IMG/VR virus record: IMGVR_UViG_2711768011_000006
DNA from: a virus
Lineage: Duplodnaviria > Heunggongvirae > Uroviricota > Caudoviricetes
Strand: one strand, 5' to 3'
DNA length: 39,935 nucleotides
Shown piece by piece: positions 7,489-39,935 of this stretch. Both the position numbers and the translations under genes were made by a program. The notes beneath the pieces are model-generated. The model saw only the letters and a list, made by a program, of their open reading frames with translations, did not search any database and was not told the origin of the DNA. The number at the start of each line of letters is the position of its first letter. Within the stretch, counting starts at the first letter, position 1.

Positions 7489-8003
7489 TGTTCTTTAAAA
7501 CATCAAACCCTTCCGCGCTGGCTGCGTGGCAAAAATACCAGCAGGACTGCCAGAAAGTTAAGGATGAGGCAAAACGCCTTGAGGCCGTGCTGAATGTTGC
7601 GTGCCGGTCGGTATTTGTATCCGGTATCAGTGGATTTTACTTTAAGGGACTGCGTTTTACGGAGGACAAATATCCTTTTCATCGCGACTTATGGCGAAAA
7701 CCGACTGCGTCGAATGGCTGGAGCTGCACACCGCGCACATCACGTATCCCTAAAACCCTGCGTGTTGCCTCTGATGAACTGAACAGTCTGTGGCGTGAAT
7801 ATTCGCCCGTCACGTATGCCAGAACCGATGCGCTGTTGTTCTGGTTGGGTATTGATTTCTCGGCAATCCTGTTTGGCCCTGTGAAGTGGTTCTGCGTTGA
7901 CGATGTGATTTACCTTCAGTGCGGCGTAAAACCCGCAAAACAGAAAATGACCGAAATACTGTCTGATGAGTTTTATGCTGCTGAAAAGCGAGTCAGGGGG
8001 TGA
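7488..8003 (+). CDS. Hypothetical accessory early protein
   Basis: 171-aa ORF; start overlaps the previous stop. Confidence 0.5.
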   Translation: MFFKTSNPSALAAWQKYQQDCQKVKDEAKRLEAVLNVACRSVFVSGISGFYFKGLRFTEDKYPFHRDLWRKPTASNGWSCTPRTSRIPKTLRVASDELNSLWREYSPVTYARTDALLFWLGIDFSAILFGPVKWFCVDDVIYLQCGVKPAKQKMTEILSDEFYAAEKRVRG

Positions 8004-9602: not shown

Positions 9603-10115
9603 ATGAATCGCGCTTCCCTGATTACCTTAATACATGTCGCAAAACGCGATCTACAGCTTGACCATGATACCTATACATCCGCGCTGCTGGCAGCCACCGG
9701 CAAATCCAGTTGCCGTGATATGTCACCCGGTGAGTTATCCCGCGTGCTGGATGTTTTCAAAAAACGCGGTTTTAAAGTGCGTCAGAAGCCGGTTAACCGG
9801 GCCTTAAAACCGGGTACGGTGACCGCCAAAATTCGCGCCATCTGGAAAGTGATGCACCGGCAGGGATTTATCTCTGATGGCGGGGAAACGGCCCTTAACC
9901 GCTGGGTGAAATCGCAGACGGCCGCGCAGAACGACGGCGAAGGTGTGGCTAACTGGCAGTGGCTGGAGCAACAACCCGCGCTGGCCTCTGATGTGCTGGA
10001 GCGTCTCAAACGCTGGCACCGCCGCAAAATGCTGGCAGCCCTGGATATGTCGGAACGTGCAGTGATGAGTTATGAGCGTGTTTGCAGGCTGTATGAAAAA
10101 TCATTCCCCCGTTAA
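9603..10115 (+). CDS. gemA: GemA-like protein (Mu gp16 family regulatory protein)
   Basis: 170 aa. N-terminus (RASLITLIHVAKRDLQLDHDTYTSALL) resembles the gp16/GemA family signature. Position upstream of the Mor/C-like gene matches Mu. Confidence 0.7.
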   Translation: MNRASLITLIHVAKRDLQLDHDTYTSALLAATGKSSCRDMSPGELSRVLDVFKKRGFKVRQKPVNRALKPGTVTAKIRAIWKVMHRQGFISDGGETALNRWVKSQTAAQNDGEGVANWQWLEQQPALASDVLERLKRWHRRKMLAALDMSERAVMSYERVCRLYEKSFPR

Positions 10116-10121
10116 CCCCAA

Positions 10122-10150
10122 ATCCCGCCACAGCGCGGGATTTTTATTTT
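10122..10150 (+). terminator. Rho-independent terminator (ATCCCGC-CACAGC-GCGGGAT followed by TTTTTATTTT)
   Basis: 7-bp GC-rich stem with T-run immediately downstream of gemA and upstream of the Mor/C-family gene. Confidence 0.65.
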
Positions 10151-10185
10151 AAACTTGCCCTGTGTAATGATGACCGGAGGCGGGT

Positions 10186-10608
10186 ATGGCTGAAACACAG
10201 ATGAGCATGTTTGGTGACAGCGAACAGCTGCACGCGCTGATTGACCGTCTGGATGATATTCCTGATGATGAGCTGAAAAAGAACTGGCCCGGCACGCTGC
10301 GGGACCTGGTTGATGTGATCAGTGCTGAACTGCACCGTCAGGGGATTGAACCTGCTCAGGCGGGAATGCTTGCCCGTAAGGTTGCAGCCGCACAGGCCGG
10401 GTACATGGGCGGGCGTGGTTATTATCTCCCGGTCGGTGAATCCCTTTTCACCGAACTGCGCAATAATGAAATTTTTTCCCGCTGGAGCCAGGGCGAAAAA
10501 ATTGAAACCCTGCGCCGCCACTACCAGATGTCAGAGACGCAGATTTACTCCGTTATCCGCAACCAGCGTCGCCTGCATCAGGAACGCACGCAGCCACGGC
10601 TTTTCTGA
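10186..10608 (+). CDS. Mor/C-family transcriptional activator (middle/late gene activator)
   Basis: 140 aa with Mor/C-like features (N-terminal MFGDSEQL, central GGRGYYLPVG, C-terminal HTH TQIYSVIRNQRRL). Located immediately upstream of the lysis genes. Confidence 0.8.
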   Translation: MAETQMSMFGDSEQLHALIDRLDDIPDDELKKNWPGTLRDLVDVISAELHRQGIEPAQAGMLARKVAAAQAGYMGGRGYYLPVGESLFTELRNNEIFSRWSQGEKIETLRRHYQMSETQIYSVIRNQRRLHQERTQPRLF

Positions 10609-10679
10609 TATTCCGCAAATCCTGCCCCCTTTTCCTCACGGTTACGCTGACTCAGAGAACACCATGAGACAGCGTAACA

Positions 10680-11180
10680 ATGCCAAAACTCCCCGCACCC
10701 CTGCGTAAAAAGCTGATTGCCCTTGTTCTGGCCGGAGCCGGGACGTTCACCATTGCCACGCACTACACCGGCTACTGGGAAGGGAAAGAAAACACCACGT
10801 ACATTGATCCCACCGGCACCCCCACCATCTGTTACGGCCATACCGGCCCGGATGTGAAACCGGGGATGACAAAAACTGATGAAGAGTGTCTGGAGCTGCT
10901 GGAAAAGGACATGAAATGGGCCTTTGCGGCTATCGATCGTCATGTTCAGGTGCCGCTTACCCGTGGTCAGACGGTGGCGCTGGCCTCCTGGATTTTCTGG
11001 GCCGGTGAAACGAACTTTCGCAACTCCACGCTCCTGCGCCTTATCAATGCCGGGCAGATGCCCGCGTCCTGTAAGCAGTATATCCGCTGGATTTATTCAA
11101 AGGGGGTAAAACTCCCCGGTCTTGAGGCCCGCCGTTCGGCGGATGAATGGTTATGTCGTTACGATTTGCCGAAAGTCTGA
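10680..11180 (+). CDS. lys: Endolysin, phage lysozyme family, with N-terminal signal-anchor (SAR-type)
   Basis: 166 aa. N-terminal hydrophobic segment LIALVLAGAGTFTIA followed by a lysozyme-like catalytic region (YWEGKENTTYIDPTGTPTICYGHTG). Confidence 0.85.
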   Translation: MPKLPAPLRKKLIALVLAGAGTFTIATHYTGYWEGKENTTYIDPTGTPTICYGHTGPDVKPGMTKTDEECLELLEKDMKWAFAAIDRHVQVPLTRGQTVALASWIFWAGETNFRNSTLLRLINAGQMPASCKQYIRWIYSKGVKLPGLEARRSADEWLCRYDLPKV

Positions 11181-18069: not shown

Positions 18070-18070
18070 C

Positions 18071-18150
18071 GGTCAGTGGCGGGGGTCGAACCCGCATACA
18101 TGATCCACCCGGAGGCAGGCACCGACTTTACCAGTTAAGCGTACACTGAC
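18071..18150 (-). other. tRNA-like structured element (acceptor-like stem, D-arm-like and T-arm-like hairpins; no canonical anticodon arm)
   Basis: On the minus strand, GTCAGTG pairs with CACTGAC 66 nt away. A T-arm-like GCGGG-TTCGACC-CCCGC and a D-arm-like GCTT-AACTGGTA-AAGT are present. No 5-bp anticodon stem could be folded by eye. Confidence 0.3.
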
Positions 18151-18190
18151 CGCCTGTTTATTTTATATTCATCCTTTATGCGGAGGCAAT

Positions 18191-18664: not shown

Positions 18665-18841
18665 TGGTTTAAGGTATGCAAACGTATTACCTTACCCCCT
18701 TCAGGCGCGTGTCGTGATTTTCTAACCTGTATTTAACGGGCTTTAAAATCTGCGTGAAGCGCCTTTCTCATTCCCCCCCTGTCAGCACTTTCTGAAGTCC
18801 CGCAAAACCAGCCCCAAAAATACCCGGCTTATGCTGCCGGT

Positions 18842-34752: not shown

Positions 34753-34837
34753 CGCTTTTTTGAATTTCCGCAAAACACATATTTTTCAGCGGTCGCTATT
34801 CTGACTCTGTTTAATTCAGAAACAGGCAGAAAAGACG

Positions 34838-36892
34838 ATGTCAGACTCCAAGTGGAAAATGCTCTCCGCCATGCCCGGAGAGTTTTCAGTCAAGGTTGCC
34901 GGTGGCACGGTGGCATTTATTGAAAGCCCTTTCCGCCCTTCGGGTAATAAAGGGGGGATCACCTTCGCAGACTGCGTGATCCGCTTCAGCACGAAAGAGC
35001 CATTATGGGTAATGCCGGTATCCGGTAATCCCAGTGCAGAAATCACCAGTTCAGGCGTGACTGGCATCATTCCAATCACATCTGACGTGGCCGGAACGCT
35101 CACGCCCTCCGACTGGAATGCACCGGATAACGCCGGGCCTTCCGGTAGCACGAATGGCAGCAGTTCAGAGCCGGAATATTACTTTGTTGTCATTCTCGCG
35201 GGTCAGTCAAATGGCATGGCCTACGGCGAGGGGCTGCCGTTACCGGATTCGTTTGACCGCCCGGACCCACGCATTAAGCAACTGGCACGCCGCAGTACGG
35301 TAACGCCCAACGGTACGTCGTGTACATACAACGACATCATTCCGGCAGACCACTGCCTGCATGATGTTCAGGATATGAGCGGGATAAACCACCCGAAAGC
35401 TGATCTGGCAAAAGGCCAGTACGGGACTGTCGGTCAGGGGTTGCATATTGCCAAAAAACTGCTTCCCTATATCCCACAGAATGCCGGGATACTTCTGGTG
35501 CCCTGTTGTCGTGGCGGGTCAGCATTCACCACTGGAGCCGACGGCTCATTCAGTGAGGCCAGCGGTGCTTCCGCTGATTCTTCACGCTGGGGGGCCGGTA
35601 AACCTCTGTATCAGGACCTGGTAAGCCGCACCAAAGTCGCGCTGGCGAAAAACCCGAAAAACAAACTTCTGGCTGTGGTCTGGATGCAGGGAGAGGCAGA
35701 CCTTGCCTCAGGAAGCCAGCAGCATAATAGTTTATTCACGGCCATGGTTCAGCAGTTCAGAACTGACCTGGCTCCGCTTGCTGCGCAGTGCGTGAGTGGA
35801 AATGCCACCACGGTGCCGTGGATTTGCGGTGATACCACGTATTACTGGAAAAACGCTGGCACCGATAAATATGAGGCAGTATACGGTGGCTACAAAGGCA
35901 AGGAAGCACAGAAAATTTTCTTTGTACCGTTCCTGACGGATGAGAATGGACAGAGCACGCCAACGAATGCTCCGGCGGAAGACCCGGATATTGTGGCTGT
36001 CGGGTATTACGGTGCAGCATCCCGAACCCAGGGCAGTTTTGTTTCGACACAGCGTGACAGCCATTTCAGCTCATGGGCACGCAGGGGCGTCATTTCAGAC
36101 CGTCTGGCCTCAGCTATTATGCTCCATGCAGGGCGCACGGCTGAACTGATGCGTGGGCAGACCGTGACACCACCGGATGAGAAGCCGTCACCTGATACAC
36201 CATCAAAACCGTCCACGCCACCCGCAGACACCACGACGATGAGTACGCTATTTGCTTACCGGGCATCTGAGTCTGAAGGACGGTTGACACCACAGGGTTG
36301 GGCTGCCGGAGGTGGCAAGGCTCAAATCGTGGATGATGCCGGAGCCAGCGGGGGTAAGGCAATGAAACTGACCAAGGAAACAGGAAGAGCCCCCTGGTAC
36401 CTTGAGCATGATGCTGGTAATGGTGCGGACCTGCTGGGTAAAGGTGGTCTTGTCAGTTGTCGTTTTAAACTCGATGGCGCGCTTACGGCTAATCAGTACG
36501 CACTGGCGCTGTACTGGCCGGTTTCTGCCCTGCCGCAAGGGGTTACTCTGGAAGGAAATGCCGGTCATAACCTGCTGGCATCGTTCTACGTACAGAGCGA
36601 TGCCACAGACCTTAACGTGATGTATCACAAAGGAAACACGGCGCAGAACACGAAGCTGGGGTCATTCGGCGCATTTAATAACGAATGGCATACGCTGGGC
36701 TTCCGTTTTGCCGGTAACAACAGTATTGAGGTGACGCCGGTCATTGATGGTAAGGACGGGACACCATTCATGCTGTCGCAGTCTCCGGTCGGCACGTTTA
36801 CGGCAGACAAGTTGCGCGTGACCGATATCACTAAAAATGCGACTTACCCGGTACTGATTGACAGTATCGTGGTGGAAGTGAATAACGCGTAA
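34838..36892 (+). CDS. Multidomain SGNH-hydrolase / sialate-O-acetylesterase-like protein with Pro/Thr-rich linker and C-terminal beta-sandwich-like domain
   Basis: 684 aa. The block YYFVVILAGQSNGMAYGEG matches the GQSN-type catalytic block of the SASA carbohydrate esterase family. A PDEKPSPDTPSKPSTPPADTTT linker follows. Not part of the canonical Mu gene set. Confidence 0.6.
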   Translation: MSDSKWKMLSAMPGEFSVKVAGGTVAFIESPFRPSGNKGGITFADCVIRFSTKEPLWVMPVSGNPSAEITSSGVTGIIPITSDVAGTLTPSDWNAPDNAGPSGSTNGSSSEPEYYFVVILAGQSNGMAYGEGLPLPDSFDRPDPRIKQLARRSTVTPNGTSCTYNDIIPADHCLHDVQDMSGINHPKADLAKGQYGTVGQGLHIAKKLLPYIPQNAGILLVPCCRGGSAFTTGADGSFSEASGASADSSRWGAGKPLYQDLVSRTKVALAKNPKNKLLAVVWMQGEADLASGSQQHNSLFTAMVQQFRTDLAPLAAQCVSGNATTVPWICGDTTYYWKNAGTDKYEAVYGGYKGKEAQKIFFVPFLTDENGQSTPTNAPAEDPDIVAVGYYGAASRTQGSFVSTQRDSHFSSWARRGVISDRLASAIMLHAGRTAELMRGQTVTPPDEKPSPDTPSKPSTPPADTTTMSTLFAYRASESEGRLTPQGWAAGGGKAQIVDDAGASGGKAMKLTKETGRAPWYLEHDAGNGADLLGKGGLVSCRFKLDGALTANQYALALYWPVSALPQGVTLEGNAGHNLLASFYVQSDATDLNVMYHKGNTAQNTKLGSFGAFNNEWHTLGFRFAGNNSIEVTPVIDGKDGTPFMLSQSPVGTFTADKLRVTDITKNATYPVLIDSIVVEVNNA

Positions 36893-36906
36893 GCAGGATA
36901 AAAAAA

Positions 36907-36950
36907 TGCCGCCGGTAAGGGAAAACAAGAAACCGGCGGCAAAAAGATCG
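36907..36950. terminator. Hairpin downstream of the esterase gene (GCCGCCGGT-15 nt loop-ACCGGCGGC) flanked by A-runs
   Basis: 9-bp GC-rich perfect stem. The flanking A-runs would be T-runs for the minus strand, so this may act bidirectionally. Confidence 0.4.
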
Positions 36951-37036
36951 TTATATCCAAAGCAAAAAATGCAGTGCACCTTTTTACCTAACAGATATTA
37001 CCGGTGTCAACACCATGTCAATAATTGGGAGGGATA

Positions 37037-37219
37037 ATGACATTTTTACAGCTTATTTTATTGTATTTCTGCACGGCAGTATGTGCGTTATATCTGGTGA
37101 GTGGTGGTTATAAGGCCATCAGAAATTATGTTCGCCGCAAAATTGAGGACGCAGCAGCTGAAAAACTCAGTAAAACAGCGCAGGTAACTCCGCTCCCAAA
37201 AGACCCGACCCAGCCCTGA
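37037..37219 (+). CDS. Small membrane protein (single N-terminal transmembrane helix)
   Basis: ATG at 37037 preceded by GGGAGGG; 60 aa. Hydrophobic N-terminus (FLQLILLYFCTAVCALYLVSGG) followed by a charged tail. Confidence 0.4.
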   Translation: MTFLQLILLYFCTAVCALYLVSGGYKAIRNYVRRKIEDAAAEKLSKTAQVTPLPKDPTQP

Positions 37220-37254
37220 TTGCAGGGCTTTATTCCCGCATAAGGAGGATATAC

Positions 37255-37509
37255 ATGCCAGAAATTAAAGGCACCGTCACTGAAGACCTGGTAAAACAGG
37301 CACTGTATTCCGGTGAAGTAAATAAGTTGCTGAAAGCGCAGGTCCGCAAGGATTTTGAGGCACAAATCGACACTTACGTTGATGAAGTGCTGGCAAAACT
37401 TATTGGGCCAGCAGTTGCGGCCAGTGATGCTGATAATGAGCCGAAAACCGACGCGCAGCCAGAGCAACCAGACCCGGCTCAGCCCGGAACTGACAGTACC
37501 ATGATGTAA
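37255..37509 (+). CDS. Small acidic hypothetical protein
   Basis: ATG at 37255 with strong ribosome-binding site (AAGGAGG) 7 nt upstream; 84 aa, acidic Pro-rich C-terminus. Confidence 0.5.
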   Translation: MPEIKGTVTEDLVKQALYSGEVNKLLKAQVRKDFEAQIDTYVDEVLAKLIGPAVAASDADNEPKTDAQPEQPDPAQPGTDSTMM

Positions 37510-37676
37510 CAATACAAACCGGTGGTGTCCTCTGCCGGTTTGACACTAATGAAAACATCTTTGCCGCTATCCAGCCATATGTAATCGCTGGATAGTATTT
37601 CGTATTCAGAAATATAGCTGCTTATGGAGCAGTCAATCCTGCTTCCCCATCCGGGCAGGCAAATGAACCGGTATCA

Positions 37677-37970
37677 TTAGTCCGATTCACGCTTTTGTAG
37701 AATCGTTCCCAGAATGCTATACAGCTCATTAGCCTGTTGCTCCATCATTGAGACGGAGGCTATACGGTGCAAAGTGATTTCAGGAGGTGGCACACCTCCA
37801 TCTTCTTGCTGTGGAGGAAAAACATAAGATTTAATAAAAAAGTTGAAGCATATGAACTCTCCCGCACTCGAACTGTATTTGCAGGCATCTGAATAATCGG
37901 AAAAATAATCATTATAGATTTCCGCATTTTCAATCATTTTTCGATTTCTCGTCGTTACATGATTGTCCAT
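37677..37970 (-). CDS. Hypothetical protein on the minus strand in the AT-rich cargo region
   Basis: 97-aa ORF in a region of much lower GC content than the phage body. Confidence 0.4.
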   Translation of the reverse strand: MDNHVTTRNRKMIENAEIYNDYFSDYSDACKYSSSAGEFICFNFFIKSYVFPPQQEDGGVPPPEITLHRIASVSMMEQQANELYSILGTILQKRESD

Positions 37971-38162
37971 AGCAGCCTCTTACGCTGGCAATTAACCAAT
38001 TGACTTCTATAAATTAGTTGATTTGTTTGCTTTGCGGTATTCAAATGTACAATCATTCAGCACTTATGCGTTACAGCACCGTTTAAAATTAGTGATCAAA
38101 CTCATAAATTTTCGCTAATGACATTTCGTGTTATTTGTTGTATCAATTAAATAAATCAAATC

Positions 38163-38179
38163 GATCGTTTTTGTCGATC
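38163..38179. promoter_or_regulatory. Clustered GATC (Dam) sites upstream of com-mom (38163-38166 and 38176-38179) within the direct repeat TCGATCG-N6-TCGATCG
   Basis: Two GATC sites 13 bp apart about 50 bp upstream of the com start. In Mu, mom transcription is controlled by Dam methylation of upstream GATC sites. Confidence 0.4.
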
Positions 38180-38226
38180 GATTGAGTGATAAAGATATCA
38201 ACAACAAAGCAGGAGGTTATGCGGCC

Positions 38227-38427
38227 ATGTATCGAAACATACGGTGCCGACATTGTAACAAGCTACTGGCACGAGCCAGCTTCAGTTATCTGGAAGTTAA
38301 ATGTCCGCGCTGTAAAACCCTCAATCAAATCACATCTCAGAGCGCCACAGAGCACCCCACATACACAAGGAAATCCTGTCGTGGGGAACAGAAAGCAAGT
38401 TACATCCCGTATCATCAGCACGCCTGA
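38227..38427 (+). CDS. com: Com-like zinc-finger translational activator of mom
   Basis: ATG at 38227 with AGGAGG 10 nt upstream. Translation [35 protein letters not shown] resembles Mu Com (two CxxC pairs). Overlaps the 5' end of the mom frame. Confidence 0.8.
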
Positions 38428-39118
38428 ACTTATTCACTATAACGACAATATCGTCGGTTATGGCTCCCGTGAGTTACGGGTTGAGACAATAAGTTGCTGG
38501 CTGGCCCGGCTGGTCGTCGTCAATAAACATTACAGCCATCGTTTCGTAAATAATTCCTACCTTCATCTGGGCATATTTTCAGAACGGGAGCTGGTTGGCG
38601 TAATGCAATGGGGTTATGCCCTTAATCCAAACAATGGTGCACGCGTCGTAACTGGCACGCAGAACCGCGAATATATGGAGCTTAACCGGTTATGGCTGCA
38701 TGACTGTATGCCGAGAAACTCCGAATCAAGGGCAATCAGTTACGCGCTCAAACTAATCAGACAACTTTATCCGCAGGTGCAGTGGGTTCAGTCGTTTGCA
38801 GATGAGCGTTGTGGCTGTCTTGGTGTCGTGTACCAGGCAAGCAATTTTGATTATGTAGGCAGTCATGAAACAACATTCTATGAACTTGATGGCGAGTGGT
38901 ATCACGAGATTTGCAAGAATGCAATCAAACGAGGAGGACAGCGAGGTGAACATCTGCGGGCTAATATCGACAGAGCCAGTGTTCATAAATTCCGTCAGTT
39001 TCGTTACATCCGGTTTCTGGACAAGAGAGCCAGAAAACGCCTTAACACAAAGCTATTCAAAGTCCAGCCTTACCCAAAACCACAAACAGTTAAAACTGGT
39101 TTGAAAGAGAGTGAATGA
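38381..39118 (+). CDS. mom: Mom-like DNA modification protein; start uncertain (GTG at 38381 chosen; frame is open from 38186)
   Basis: Long ORF overlapping the com 3' end in another frame, as in Mu. Sequence ([18 protein letters not shown]...FADERCG...[10 protein letters not shown]) resembles Mu Mom as recalled. No in-frame ATG exists between com and the conserved region. Confidence 0.8.
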
Positions 39119-39164
39119 ACGCTTAAAAACTCATTCTAAAACTCAAAAGAAAAGCGCCGATTTA

Positions 39165-39204
39165 GTATCAAATAAGTTGCGTATCGGCGTTTTTCAGCGG
39201 TATC
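39165..39204 (-). repeat. attR-like transposase-binding motifs (reverse complement of the left-end motif); terminal site truncated by the N gap
   Basis: GTATCAAATAAG (39165-39176) is the reverse complement of CTTATTTGATAC. CGGTATC (39198-39204) is the reverse complement of GATACCG and abuts the N run. Confidence 0.5.
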
Positions 39205-39453
39205 NNNNNNNNNNNNNNNNNNNNNNNNNNNNNNNNNNNNNNNNNNNNNNNNNNNNNNNNNNNNNNNNNNNNNNNNNNNNNNNNNNNNNNNNNNNNNNNN
39301 NNNNNNNNNNNNNNNNNNNNNNNNNNNNNNNNNNNNNNNNNNNNNNNNNNNNNNNNNNNNNNNNNNNNNNNNNNNNNNNNNNNNNNNNNNNNNNNNNNNN
39401 NNNNNNNNNNNNNNNNNNNNNNNNNNNNNNNNNNNNNNNNNNNNNNNNNNNNN
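39205..39453. other. Assembly gap (249 N)
   Basis: Continuous run of N. ORFs translated across it (39111-39470, 39194-39748) are artefacts. Confidence 1.
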
Positions 39454-39745
39454 CCAGTGGCCGGCGCTGACGTACTATGCAGATGATGGCTGGGCTGAGG
39501 CGGACAATAACATCGCTGAAAATGCGTTGCGGATGGTCAGTCTGGGCCGCAAAAACTACCTGTTCTTCGGTTCGGATCATGGAGGAGAGCGGGGAGCGCT
39601 GCTGTACAGCCTGATCGGGACGTGCAAACTGAACGGAGTGGAGCCAGAAAGCTACCTCCGCTATGTCCTTGACGTCATAGCCGACTGGCCGATAAACCGG
39701 GTCGGCGAACTGCTCCCCTGGCGCGTAGCACTGCCGACTGAATAA
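39454..39745 (+). CDS. tnpC: IS66-family transposase TnpC, C-terminal fragment (5' part lost in or before the gap)
   Basis: Frame open from the gap edge: QWPALTYYADDGWAEADNNIAENALRMVSLGRKNYLFFGSDHGGERGALLYSLIGTCKLNGVEP..., the conserved C-terminal block of IS66 transposases. Confidence 0.8.
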
Positions 39746-39782
39746 CACATTCCCGTCAATACGGTTCTTGCTGCACGCTTAC
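39454..39782 (+). mobile_element. IS66-family element, right portion, ending with terminal repeat ...CGCTTAC at 39782
   Basis: tnpC 3' end followed by about 37 bp ending in GCACGCTTAC, the reverse complement of the IS66-type terminus GTAAGCG. Confidence 0.6.
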
Positions 39783-39935
39783 GGTAAACACCCCGGAAGT
39801 GGTGATGCACACTGTTGCTGATGTGATGACAGGAAACGATGGTGAATACTGTTTCCATGCGCGGACTGGAAAATATGGTGTGTATCTGAAACCGGGCTGG
39901 CACAACGAGTACAACGTTGGCGACATTGCTGTATA

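Follow-up and report, generated by a model that had tools for sequence, protein, structure and literature searches.

Positions 38163 to 39118 of the DNA analysed here, a stretch of 39,935 nucleotides referred to below as the window, raise the question of whether the com-mom DNA-modification operon of phage Mu is present in this phage, and of how far its expression is controlled as in Mu. The locus is, with a probability of roughly 0.88, a com-mom operon that works essentially in the manner of Mu and belongs to a transposable, Mu-like prophage of the Sp18 type of E. coli. The presence of an intact com-mom at the right end of such a prophage, a common one in E. coli, is correctly recognised but ordinary, and it is already known from the RefSeq annotation of the family and from a mention of Sp18-type prophages in the literature. 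Its main value lies in confirmation of the annotation, which places anti-restriction DNA hypermodification in a mobile Mu-like prophage found in about 4% of complete E. coli genomes. The mechanism of com-mom is treated elsewhere (PMC13219725, PMC6483171, PMC3378877). All of the elements noticed in an earlier, sequence-only reading of this DNA are present, with minor corrections of coordinates, and its interpretation of two overlapping reading frames as orthologues of Com and Mom in the arrangement of Mu is supported by the comparisons described below.

Com, Mom and the prophage that carries them

The com gene (38227..38427, + strand) encodes a protein of 66 amino acids. Its start codon is ATG at 38227, not 38228, and its stop codon ends at 38427. 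A Shine-Dalgarno sequence, AGGAGG (38211..38216, +), can be read from the sequence 10 nt before this ATG and is conserved in the family. The product had been described as a Com-like zinc-finger protein, which holds: it matches Pfam PF10122 at 48.2 bits (cut-off 22.9; E 7.5e-13) and is 45% identical to Mu Com (BLASTP, E 2e-14). Its cysteines 7, 10, 26 and 29 are aligned with cysteines 6, 9, 26 and 29 of Mu Com and form a CCCC zinc ribbon that agrees with the family profile. Com is thereby predicted to be an RNA-binding protein that activates the translation of mom.

The mom gene (38381..39118, +) starts with GTG, overlaps the 3' end of com by 47 nt (38381-38427) in a different frame, and encodes a protein of 245 amino acids. 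The same gene order, with com lying over the 5' end of mom in another frame, is found in Mu, where the overlap is 50 nt; D108 and SfMu carry operons of the same kind. The identification of this frame as Mom is borne out by a match to Pfam PF25680 that covers profile positions 1-202 of 202 (261.2 bits, cut-off 27.1; E 7.8e-78), by 78% identity to Mu Mom (BLASTP, E 5e-140) and by a match to the sequence of the Mu Mom crystal structure, PDB 8bv8 (E 2.4e-123). Mom here has two additional residues at the N-terminus and 12 at the C-terminus compared with Mu Mom. All ten residues inspected for activity (Y28, W48, H58, Y59, R111, S124, D149, R151, Y159 and W181 in the Mu numbering) are conserved; R103, S116, D141, R143, W40, H50, Y51, Y151 and W173 are the numbers in the window protein. 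In Mu Mom, mutation of these residues abolishes or strongly lowers activity, and a helix-turn-helix (HTH)-like insertion is also needed for activity. This insertion (175-209) is conserved and aligned with that of Mu Mom without a gap. Among members of the family, mom has a dN/dS of 0.04-0.07 and com one of 0.04-0.11; both genes are therefore maintained by selection.

Mom is a GNAT-fold dimer that transfers glycine from Gly-tRNA(Gly) to the N6 of adenine in double-stranded DNA, after which the glycyl group rearranges on the base to yield N6-carbamoylmethyl-adenine (PMC13219725). By orthology, the protein encoded in the window is predicted to be a Gly-tRNA(Gly)-dependent adenine-N6 aminoacyltransferase of the same fold, which would glycylate adenine at N6 to give the same modified base. 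N6-carbamoylmethyl-adenine would shield the DNA of progeny phage from many restriction enzymes.

The window is a segment of the E. coli chromosome with a Mu-like transposable myovirus prophage. A fully annotated relative, in which the com-mom region is 100% identical, has the gene order of Mu: the repressor, a ner-like gene, transposase A, the B ATPase, kil, gam, gemA and an activator of the Mor/C family are followed by lysis genes, head genes, tail genes, the invertase and, at the last position, com-mom. As in Mu, com-mom thus occupies the right end of the genome of a transposable phage, although gin is not adjacent here and 3.3 kb of cargo is located between gin and com. The end of the prophage is placed at about 39246 from its relatives; the window has a run of N at 39205-39453 there. 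Downstream of mom, a very stable hairpin with an A-run on one side and a T-run on the other (39149..39195, +; AAAAGCGCCGAU...AUCGGCGUUUUU) is likely to be the intrinsic terminator of the operon. Its folding energy is -23.2 kcal/mol (z -4.19), and 0 of 200 shuffled sequences folded as well.

Of 5,426 complete E. coli genomes, 233 contain DNA that matches 37900-39205 at 90-100% identity. A single genome may have as many as four matching places, more than 10 genomes have a match of 100% identity, and the identity in O157:H7 strains is 95.6%. The insertion site differs between genomes (within dcyD, within bcsA or next to citF), and the phage family is therefore mobile and active. On identical DNA, RefSeq/PGAP calls a 'Com family' protein and a 'tRNA(Gly)-dependent adenine aminoacyltransferase Mom', whose gene coordinates correspond to 38227-38427 and 38381-39118 of the window. 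Mu-like E. coli prophages of the Sp18 type (Sp18 of O157:H7 Sakai and its relatives) belong to the same family as the window phage and show no essential difference from it; variants differ in the 16 bp just downstream of the GATC palindrome described later and in the cargo further upstream. Sp18 has been reported to encode homologues of Mom and its regulators (PMC3299994).

A predicted Com target and an inhibitory hairpin on the mRNA

A stem-loop was to be expected around 38360-38400 if the translation of mom is gated as in Mu. Folding places a translation-inhibition hairpin (TIS) at 38355..38386 (+), in which CCCCAC (38355-60) is paired with GUGGGG (38381-86). Its 3' arm holds the GUG start codon of mom, and a Shine-Dalgarno-like AAGGA (38367-71) is partly included in the apical stem. 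The GUG start of Mu mom also lies within the TIS stem (PMC6483171), in a CCCAC/GUGGG hairpin, the loop of which is 11 nt in contrast to 20 nt here. The local folding energy is -11.5 kcal/mol in the window versus -9.5 in Mu.

Immediately 5' of this hairpin is a predicted Com target (38340..38356, +), GAGCGCC-ACA-GAGCACC. The Com-binding motif selected in vitro by SELEX is bipartite, NGAGNNCC(N)2-3GAGNNCC, and its CC(N)2-3GAG part is critical (PMC6483171). The stretch 38340-38356 is a perfect match to this motif. Four base pairs, between 38342-45 and 38352-55, close a hexaloop, CACAGA, that presents CC(N)2-3GAG, as does the Com-binding hairpin of Mu. Thus, com is upstream of and overlaps a gated gene, and the Com target is located beside the hairpin that contains the start codon.

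Both hairpins were compared in an alignment of 12 distinct lineages, including the window family, Mu, Edwardsiella, Scandinavium and several viral contigs. In the Com hairpin, compensatory double changes occur in 4 of 4 pairs and 89.6% of cells are paired, whereas slid controls, in which the partners were shifted by 1-3 columns, have no double change in any case. The sole unpaired cells are C.A at 38343/38354, a mismatch that is specific to the window family and its nearest relatives and that distinguishes this hairpin from that of Mu. The TIS stem is paired in all cells of the 12 lineages, with five invariant pairs and a sixth that covaries as C-G, U-A or U-G. The five invariant pairs carry no information on the structure, since the same nucleotides code for His-Pro-Thr of Com and Val-Gly of Mom. 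The whole stretch of Com target and inhibitory hairpin is identical between the window and two viral-contig lineages (L050 and L051) although synonymous sites are otherwise saturated, which points to a constraint at the RNA level. The complete 101-nt fold gains nothing in stability over shuffled sequence (z -0.45), and the evidence for the hairpins consequently comes from the local stem, the homology to Mu and the covariation. A search of Rfam gave no family for the hairpin RNA, its sole match being a spurious one to IS102 (E 0.59). The comparative data provide independent in silico support for the model, derived from Mu, of a Com-binding hairpin coupled to an inhibitory hairpin.

Nucleotide 38355 is included in both helices, which fits a mutually exclusive switch. 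A single transcript would carry com and mom, and com would be translated from ATG 38227. Translation of mom would not take place by itself, GUG 38381 and its Shine-Dalgarno sequence being locked in the 38355-38386 hairpin. The zinc ribbon of Com would bind to CC(N)3GAG in the small hairpin just upstream. Since 38355 can pair in only one helix or the other, binding of Com would open the inhibitory hairpin and allow initiation at the GUG.

The control region upstream of com

The two GATC sites that had been noticed about 50 bp upstream occupy 38163-66 and 38176-79, or -64 and -51 relative to the ATG of com. They are 13 bp apart and are carried by a 9-bp inverted repeat, AATCGATCG-N7-CGATCGATT, at 38159..38183. 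Clustering by itself is not unusual, as several pairs with this spacing exist among the 122 GATC sites of the window; the significance of the pair comes from its conservation in Mu and in most of the enterobacterial com-mom lineages examined, where the same pair, spacing and palindrome are found, and not from rarity. In Mu, the corresponding pair, also 13 bp apart, is AATCGATC-N9-GATCGATT, which comprises GATC sites 2 and 3. The site of Mu has three GATCs whereas two are present here, and its pair is at -91/-78 from the ATG of com, so that the pair of the window is 27 bp closer. A third GATC in the window, at 38094, was set aside, being outside the OxyR-like site and not conserved in the family.

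The GATC pair is within a predicted binding site for an OxyR tetramer (38142..38178) composed of half-sites ATCAATTAAATAAAT (38142-56) and ATCGTTTTTGTCGAT (38164-78) with 7 bp between them. This site agrees with the consensus ATAGnTnnnAnCTAT-N7-ATAGnTnnnAnCTAT at 13 of 20 positions, a score that 3 of 39,899 positions of the window reach and none exceeds. The GATC-cluster region of Mu also scores 13/20, in the same register, and is reportedly the OxyR-binding region of that phage. Among variants of the window family, the predicted site belongs to a block that is nearly unchanged, and both of its flanks vary. OxyR should bind to this site and repress com-mom unless the GATCs are fully methylated, and methylation by Dam should relieve the repression.

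Other Dam/OxyR switches, P22 gtr and agn43, provide a further likeness. In P22 gtr, pairs of GATCs 13 bp apart lie inside OxyR half-sites, and the core promoter is overlapped by the pair nearer to it (-46/-33; PMC2909390). The window also has a pair 13 bp apart inside a predicted half-site, which would be at about -39/-26 if a -10 element is present at about 38190. Only one half-site carries GATCs here, in contrast to gtr and agn43. Taken together, homology of the GATC pair with Mu, the top OxyR score and the resemblance to P22 gtr make Dam/OxyR control reasonable. The earlier suggestion of Dam-dependent control can be carried over from Mu only in part: the GATC pair homologous to Mu sites 2 and 3 and the OxyR-like region are retained while the promoter and activator part of Mu is missing.

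The missing part is the segment of Mu that contains the C operator (TTATGCCCCAATAA), the -35 element and a run of six T, and it corresponds to 27-33 bp of Mu sequence. A search upstream of com for the Mu C operator in the form TTAT-N6-ATAA did not find it. The phage nevertheless encodes a C orthologue of 140 aa (10186-10608) that shares 40% identity with Mu C (E 2e-37) and 28% with Mor; its gene sits directly upstream of the lysozyme gene. In Mu, the box of Pmom, ATAAYCM-N21-(-10), is common to Plys and PI. The late promoters of the window phage have the signature CGCAAAWCM-N19-20-TAYKCT, which occurs only at 10614 (lys), 18801 (gene I) and 34769 (before the cargo genes downstream of the invertase). 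These three matches compare with 0.02 expected in the window, a ratio that is partly circular because the pattern was derived from the same three sites; it is supported by the positions of two of the three, which are those of Mu Plys and PI. Upstream of com, the best match to this signature is 10/16, which is background, since 899 positions of the window score as high. Between the GATC cluster and com there is accordingly neither a C operator nor an activator-dependent -10 that shares the late box.

A scan for sigma-70 promoters called none on the + strand upstream of com. A weak and uncertain candidate for a -10 element is TGaTAAAGAT (38187..38196, +), which is aligned by MAFFT with the Mu -10, TTTAAGAT (TAAGAT). 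It is 15 nt upstream of the com Shine-Dalgarno sequence, a distance that resembles Mu, but sister variants have GAGAAAGGC in its place and hence do not conserve it, nor was it called by the sigma-70 scan. Two other candidates were rejected. An inverted repeat, TTATTT...AAATAA (38131-54), is not conserved in sister variants, and CAAATCG beside GATC 38163, which resembles the late box, is at the wrong distance from any -10 and was judged to be coincidental. CAAATCG is also found in Mu, as part of the OxyR region. The short control architecture is shared with an Edwardsiella lineage (L007) and three viral-contig lineages (L050-L052), some of which have good -10 boxes (TATACT, TATAGT) 11-13 nt past the second GATC. 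It is therefore a recurrent design and not a one-off deletion, and a control region shortened in this way, without a recognisable C box, is a modest point of interest for the evolution of phage regulatory regions.

How com-mom is switched on might be explained by a weak local promoter under the OxyR site or by read-through from 34769. A tentative reading, less likely than not, is that transcription of mom has been rewired in this widespread lineage. The C operator and the T-run promoter would have been lost, leaving the half-site with its two GATCs at or beside the sole plausible core promoter, much as in P22 gtr. In that case mom would be governed not by direct activation by C but mainly by a methylation switch through Dam and OxyR, perhaps with differences or phase variation among lysogens or infected cells, or by C-dependent read-through from a distance.

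It is rather doubtful that com-mom, with the same coding module, has no activator-dependent promoter of its own and is transcribed late by read-through from the C-box promoter at 34769, the GATC/OxyR region serving as a roadblock or else repressing a weak local promoter. This promoter is 3.4 kb upstream of com, in front of a gene for a NanS-p-like esterase. Such transcription would agree with the late signature occurring at 10614, 18801 and 34769 but not upstream of com, and with the region 34769-38227, in which no convincing + strand terminator was found, the predicted sites being T-poor and their number at chance level. However, an opposite-strand ORF with promoter-like sites of its own intervenes, and about 250 bp before com, relatives of the L034 type contain a hairpin with a T-rich stretch after it. 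Moreover, homology with the O157 genomes, with L002 (a relative described below) and with the L034 type starts about 95-110 bp upstream of com, beyond which the cargo differs, and the module therefore travels with its own control region of about 100 bp.

Less likely still is that the short regulatory region amounts to damage, the C operator and promoter having been deleted so that mom is effectively silent in this lineage. The absence of the Mu C operator and T-run, the poor and variable -10-like sequence and an outright deletion in one relative (L054), which joins the GATC cluster to the ATG of com, could all be read in this way. A silent operon would hardly keep dN/dS at 0.04-0.07 for both genes across the family, which indicates continued selection on the proteins, nor a Com target and an inhibitory hairpin that are invariant even where synonymous sites are saturated. 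The occurrence of the short architecture in several lineages, in part with good -10 boxes, and the wide distribution and mobility of the phage family also argue against it.

The start of mom and exchange of the gated gene

The Mom frame offers only three start codons upstream of the Mom domain, GTG 38186, ATG 38219 and GTG 38381, the last of which had been proposed as the first plausible start. Four lines of sequence evidence agree with this proposal, and GTG 38381 is taken to be the start of mom. In the alignment with Mu it falls on the GTG at which the 231-aa form of Mu Mom begins, and it is homologous to the GUG of the Mu hairpin; a structural study of 2026 used a form of Mu Mom without the 10 residues that an upstream ATG adds in RefSeq. 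In the commonest sister variants, a TAA closes the frame 81 nt before this GTG, which is thus the only start possible in them. PGAP picks the same start. The start is thus pinned to a GTG that gene callers can miss.

That Mom is made in a longer form from GTG 38186 or ATG 38219, independently of the hairpin GUG, is hardly credible: the frame is indeed open for 65 codons upstream of 38381 in the window (a 310-aa ORF from 38186) and ATG 38219 is just past AGGAGG, but this ATG is only 2 nt from the Shine-Dalgarno sequence, the extension wholly overlaps com and has no match to the Pfam Mom model, which begins at residue 96 of the 310-aa ORF, a run of some 54-65 open codons has a chance probability of roughly 5-8%, and the TAA of the sister variants shows that the extension is not conserved. 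Because these variants close the frame 81 nt upstream of the GTG, the 310-aa ORF was ruled out as a chance extension, and initiation at GTG 38381 is retained.

The E. coli relative L002, a Mu-like prophage inserted in a Stx phage, has the same control region, com and hairpin as the window. Directly after GTGGGGAACA, its sequence switches to a C5 cytosine DNA methylase of 350 amino acids (PF00145, E 2e-42). As the switch is exactly at GTGGGGAACA, a recombination joint is placed at the start of the gated gene, which is the fourth line of evidence for GTG 38381. A comparable use of com is known from FluMu, Pnme1 and Hia (hin1523, nma1821, hia5), where com together with a Com target and hairpin gates translation of the DNA-modification gene that follows it at the phage right end (PMC3299994). 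L002 resembles these systems in that com and the hairpin of the window type are fused to a C5 cytosine methylase; in FluMu, Pnme1 and Hia the gated gene is a methyltransferase, whereas in the window it is a true Mom.

Gene content behind the com–hairpin cassette

The combination of com with an inhibitory hairpin is not restricted to mom. The Mu-like prophage within an Stx1a phage (L002; LC727895) has the same control region as the window and the same com gene, Com target and inhibitory hairpin, while the gated ORF that follows GTGGGGAACA (L002 3264-4316) encodes not Mom but a 350-aa C5 cytosine DNA methylase (PF00145, E 2e-42). In FluMu, adenine methylases are known at the same gated position (PMC3299994). 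The com and hairpin cassette appears to act as a portable gate on translation, behind which one DNA-modification gene can be swapped for another. The product name given to Com (window 38227-38427) in RefSeq by PGAP, 'DNA-binding transcriptional regulator', is misleading, because the experimental literature describes Com as an RNA-binding translational activator.

Upstream of com in the window, a divergent 97-aa ORF lies on the minus strand (37677-37970), which PGAP calls in a shortened form as a hypothetical protein and for which no Pfam match was found. Two sigma-70-like promoter matches are present on the strand of this ORF (37991-37962 and 37933-37905).

mom loci lacking com

About half of the fetched Mom homologues, which are approximately 68-70% identical and come from non-Mu contigs of the Serratia/Yersinia type, are encoded without com. 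In 5 of the 10 com-less loci checked, mom is preceded at a distance of 100-270 bp by a co-oriented tRNA-Gly(UCC) gene (L087, 633-706; L089, 1310-1384; L095, 1306-1379; L098, 1218-1291; L102, 1306-1379). In L089, this tRNA gene is preceded by a gene for a cysteine-rich protein, which looks Q-antiterminator-like as judged by eye. Gly-tRNA(Gly) is a co-substrate of Mom (PMC13219725), and a search of that 2026 structural study with selected text terms found no mention of a linkage between tRNA-Gly and mom. The tRNA-Gly(UCC) beside mom could be a co-substrate supplied by the phage, or it could merely be a tRNA typical of late regions.

Late transcription and the cargo region

The prophage has a single activator of the Mor/C family (window 10186-10608; 40% identical to Mu C and 28% to Mor), the gene for which, in the region 9603-10680, is directly preceded by gemA and then a terminator-like hairpin, whereas Mor and C are separate in Mu. 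Accordingly, a simpler transcription cascade than that of Mu, possibly with auto-activation, may operate in this phage. The late-promoter-like signature CGCAAAWCM-N19-20-TAYKCT has three matches in the window against 0.02 expected by chance, a count that is partly circular in that the pattern was derived from these same sites, which lie upstream of the lysozyme gene (10614-10648), the homologue of gene I (protease; 18801-18835) and the cargo operon (34769-34802). Two near-matches of 14/16 are found at 10116, upstream of the C-like gene itself, and at 7933.

The cargo, which Mu lacks, separates the invertase from com by approximately 3.3 kb (genes at window 34838-37509), and all of its genes lie downstream of a predicted C-box-type late promoter. 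It encodes a 684-aa protein with a sialate O-acetylesterase (SASA) domain and DUF6645, resembling NanS-p of Stx phages, followed by small DUF1378 and DUF826 genes.

Annotation, GATC content and the right end

PGAP assigns a 'tRNA-OTHER' to the F-G intergenic gap of the relative L005 (21517-21596), equivalent to window 18070-18190; ARAGORN found no tRNA anywhere in the window. GATC is under-represented over the whole window (122 sites versus 153.9 +/- 12.9 expected from dinucleotide-preserving shuffles, 100 of 100 of which contained at least 122), and only four sites occur from 35402 to 39575.

Comparison with the relatives L003 and L004 places the prophage end at ~39246, and a run of 249 N bases (39205-39453) hides the last ~42 bp of the prophage together with the host junction. 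Beyond this run, the flank (39454-39935) encodes the C-terminus of a transposase of the IS66 family (39527-39745; PF13817, E 6e-18), and thus the insertion site of the phage appears to be within or beside an IS66 element.
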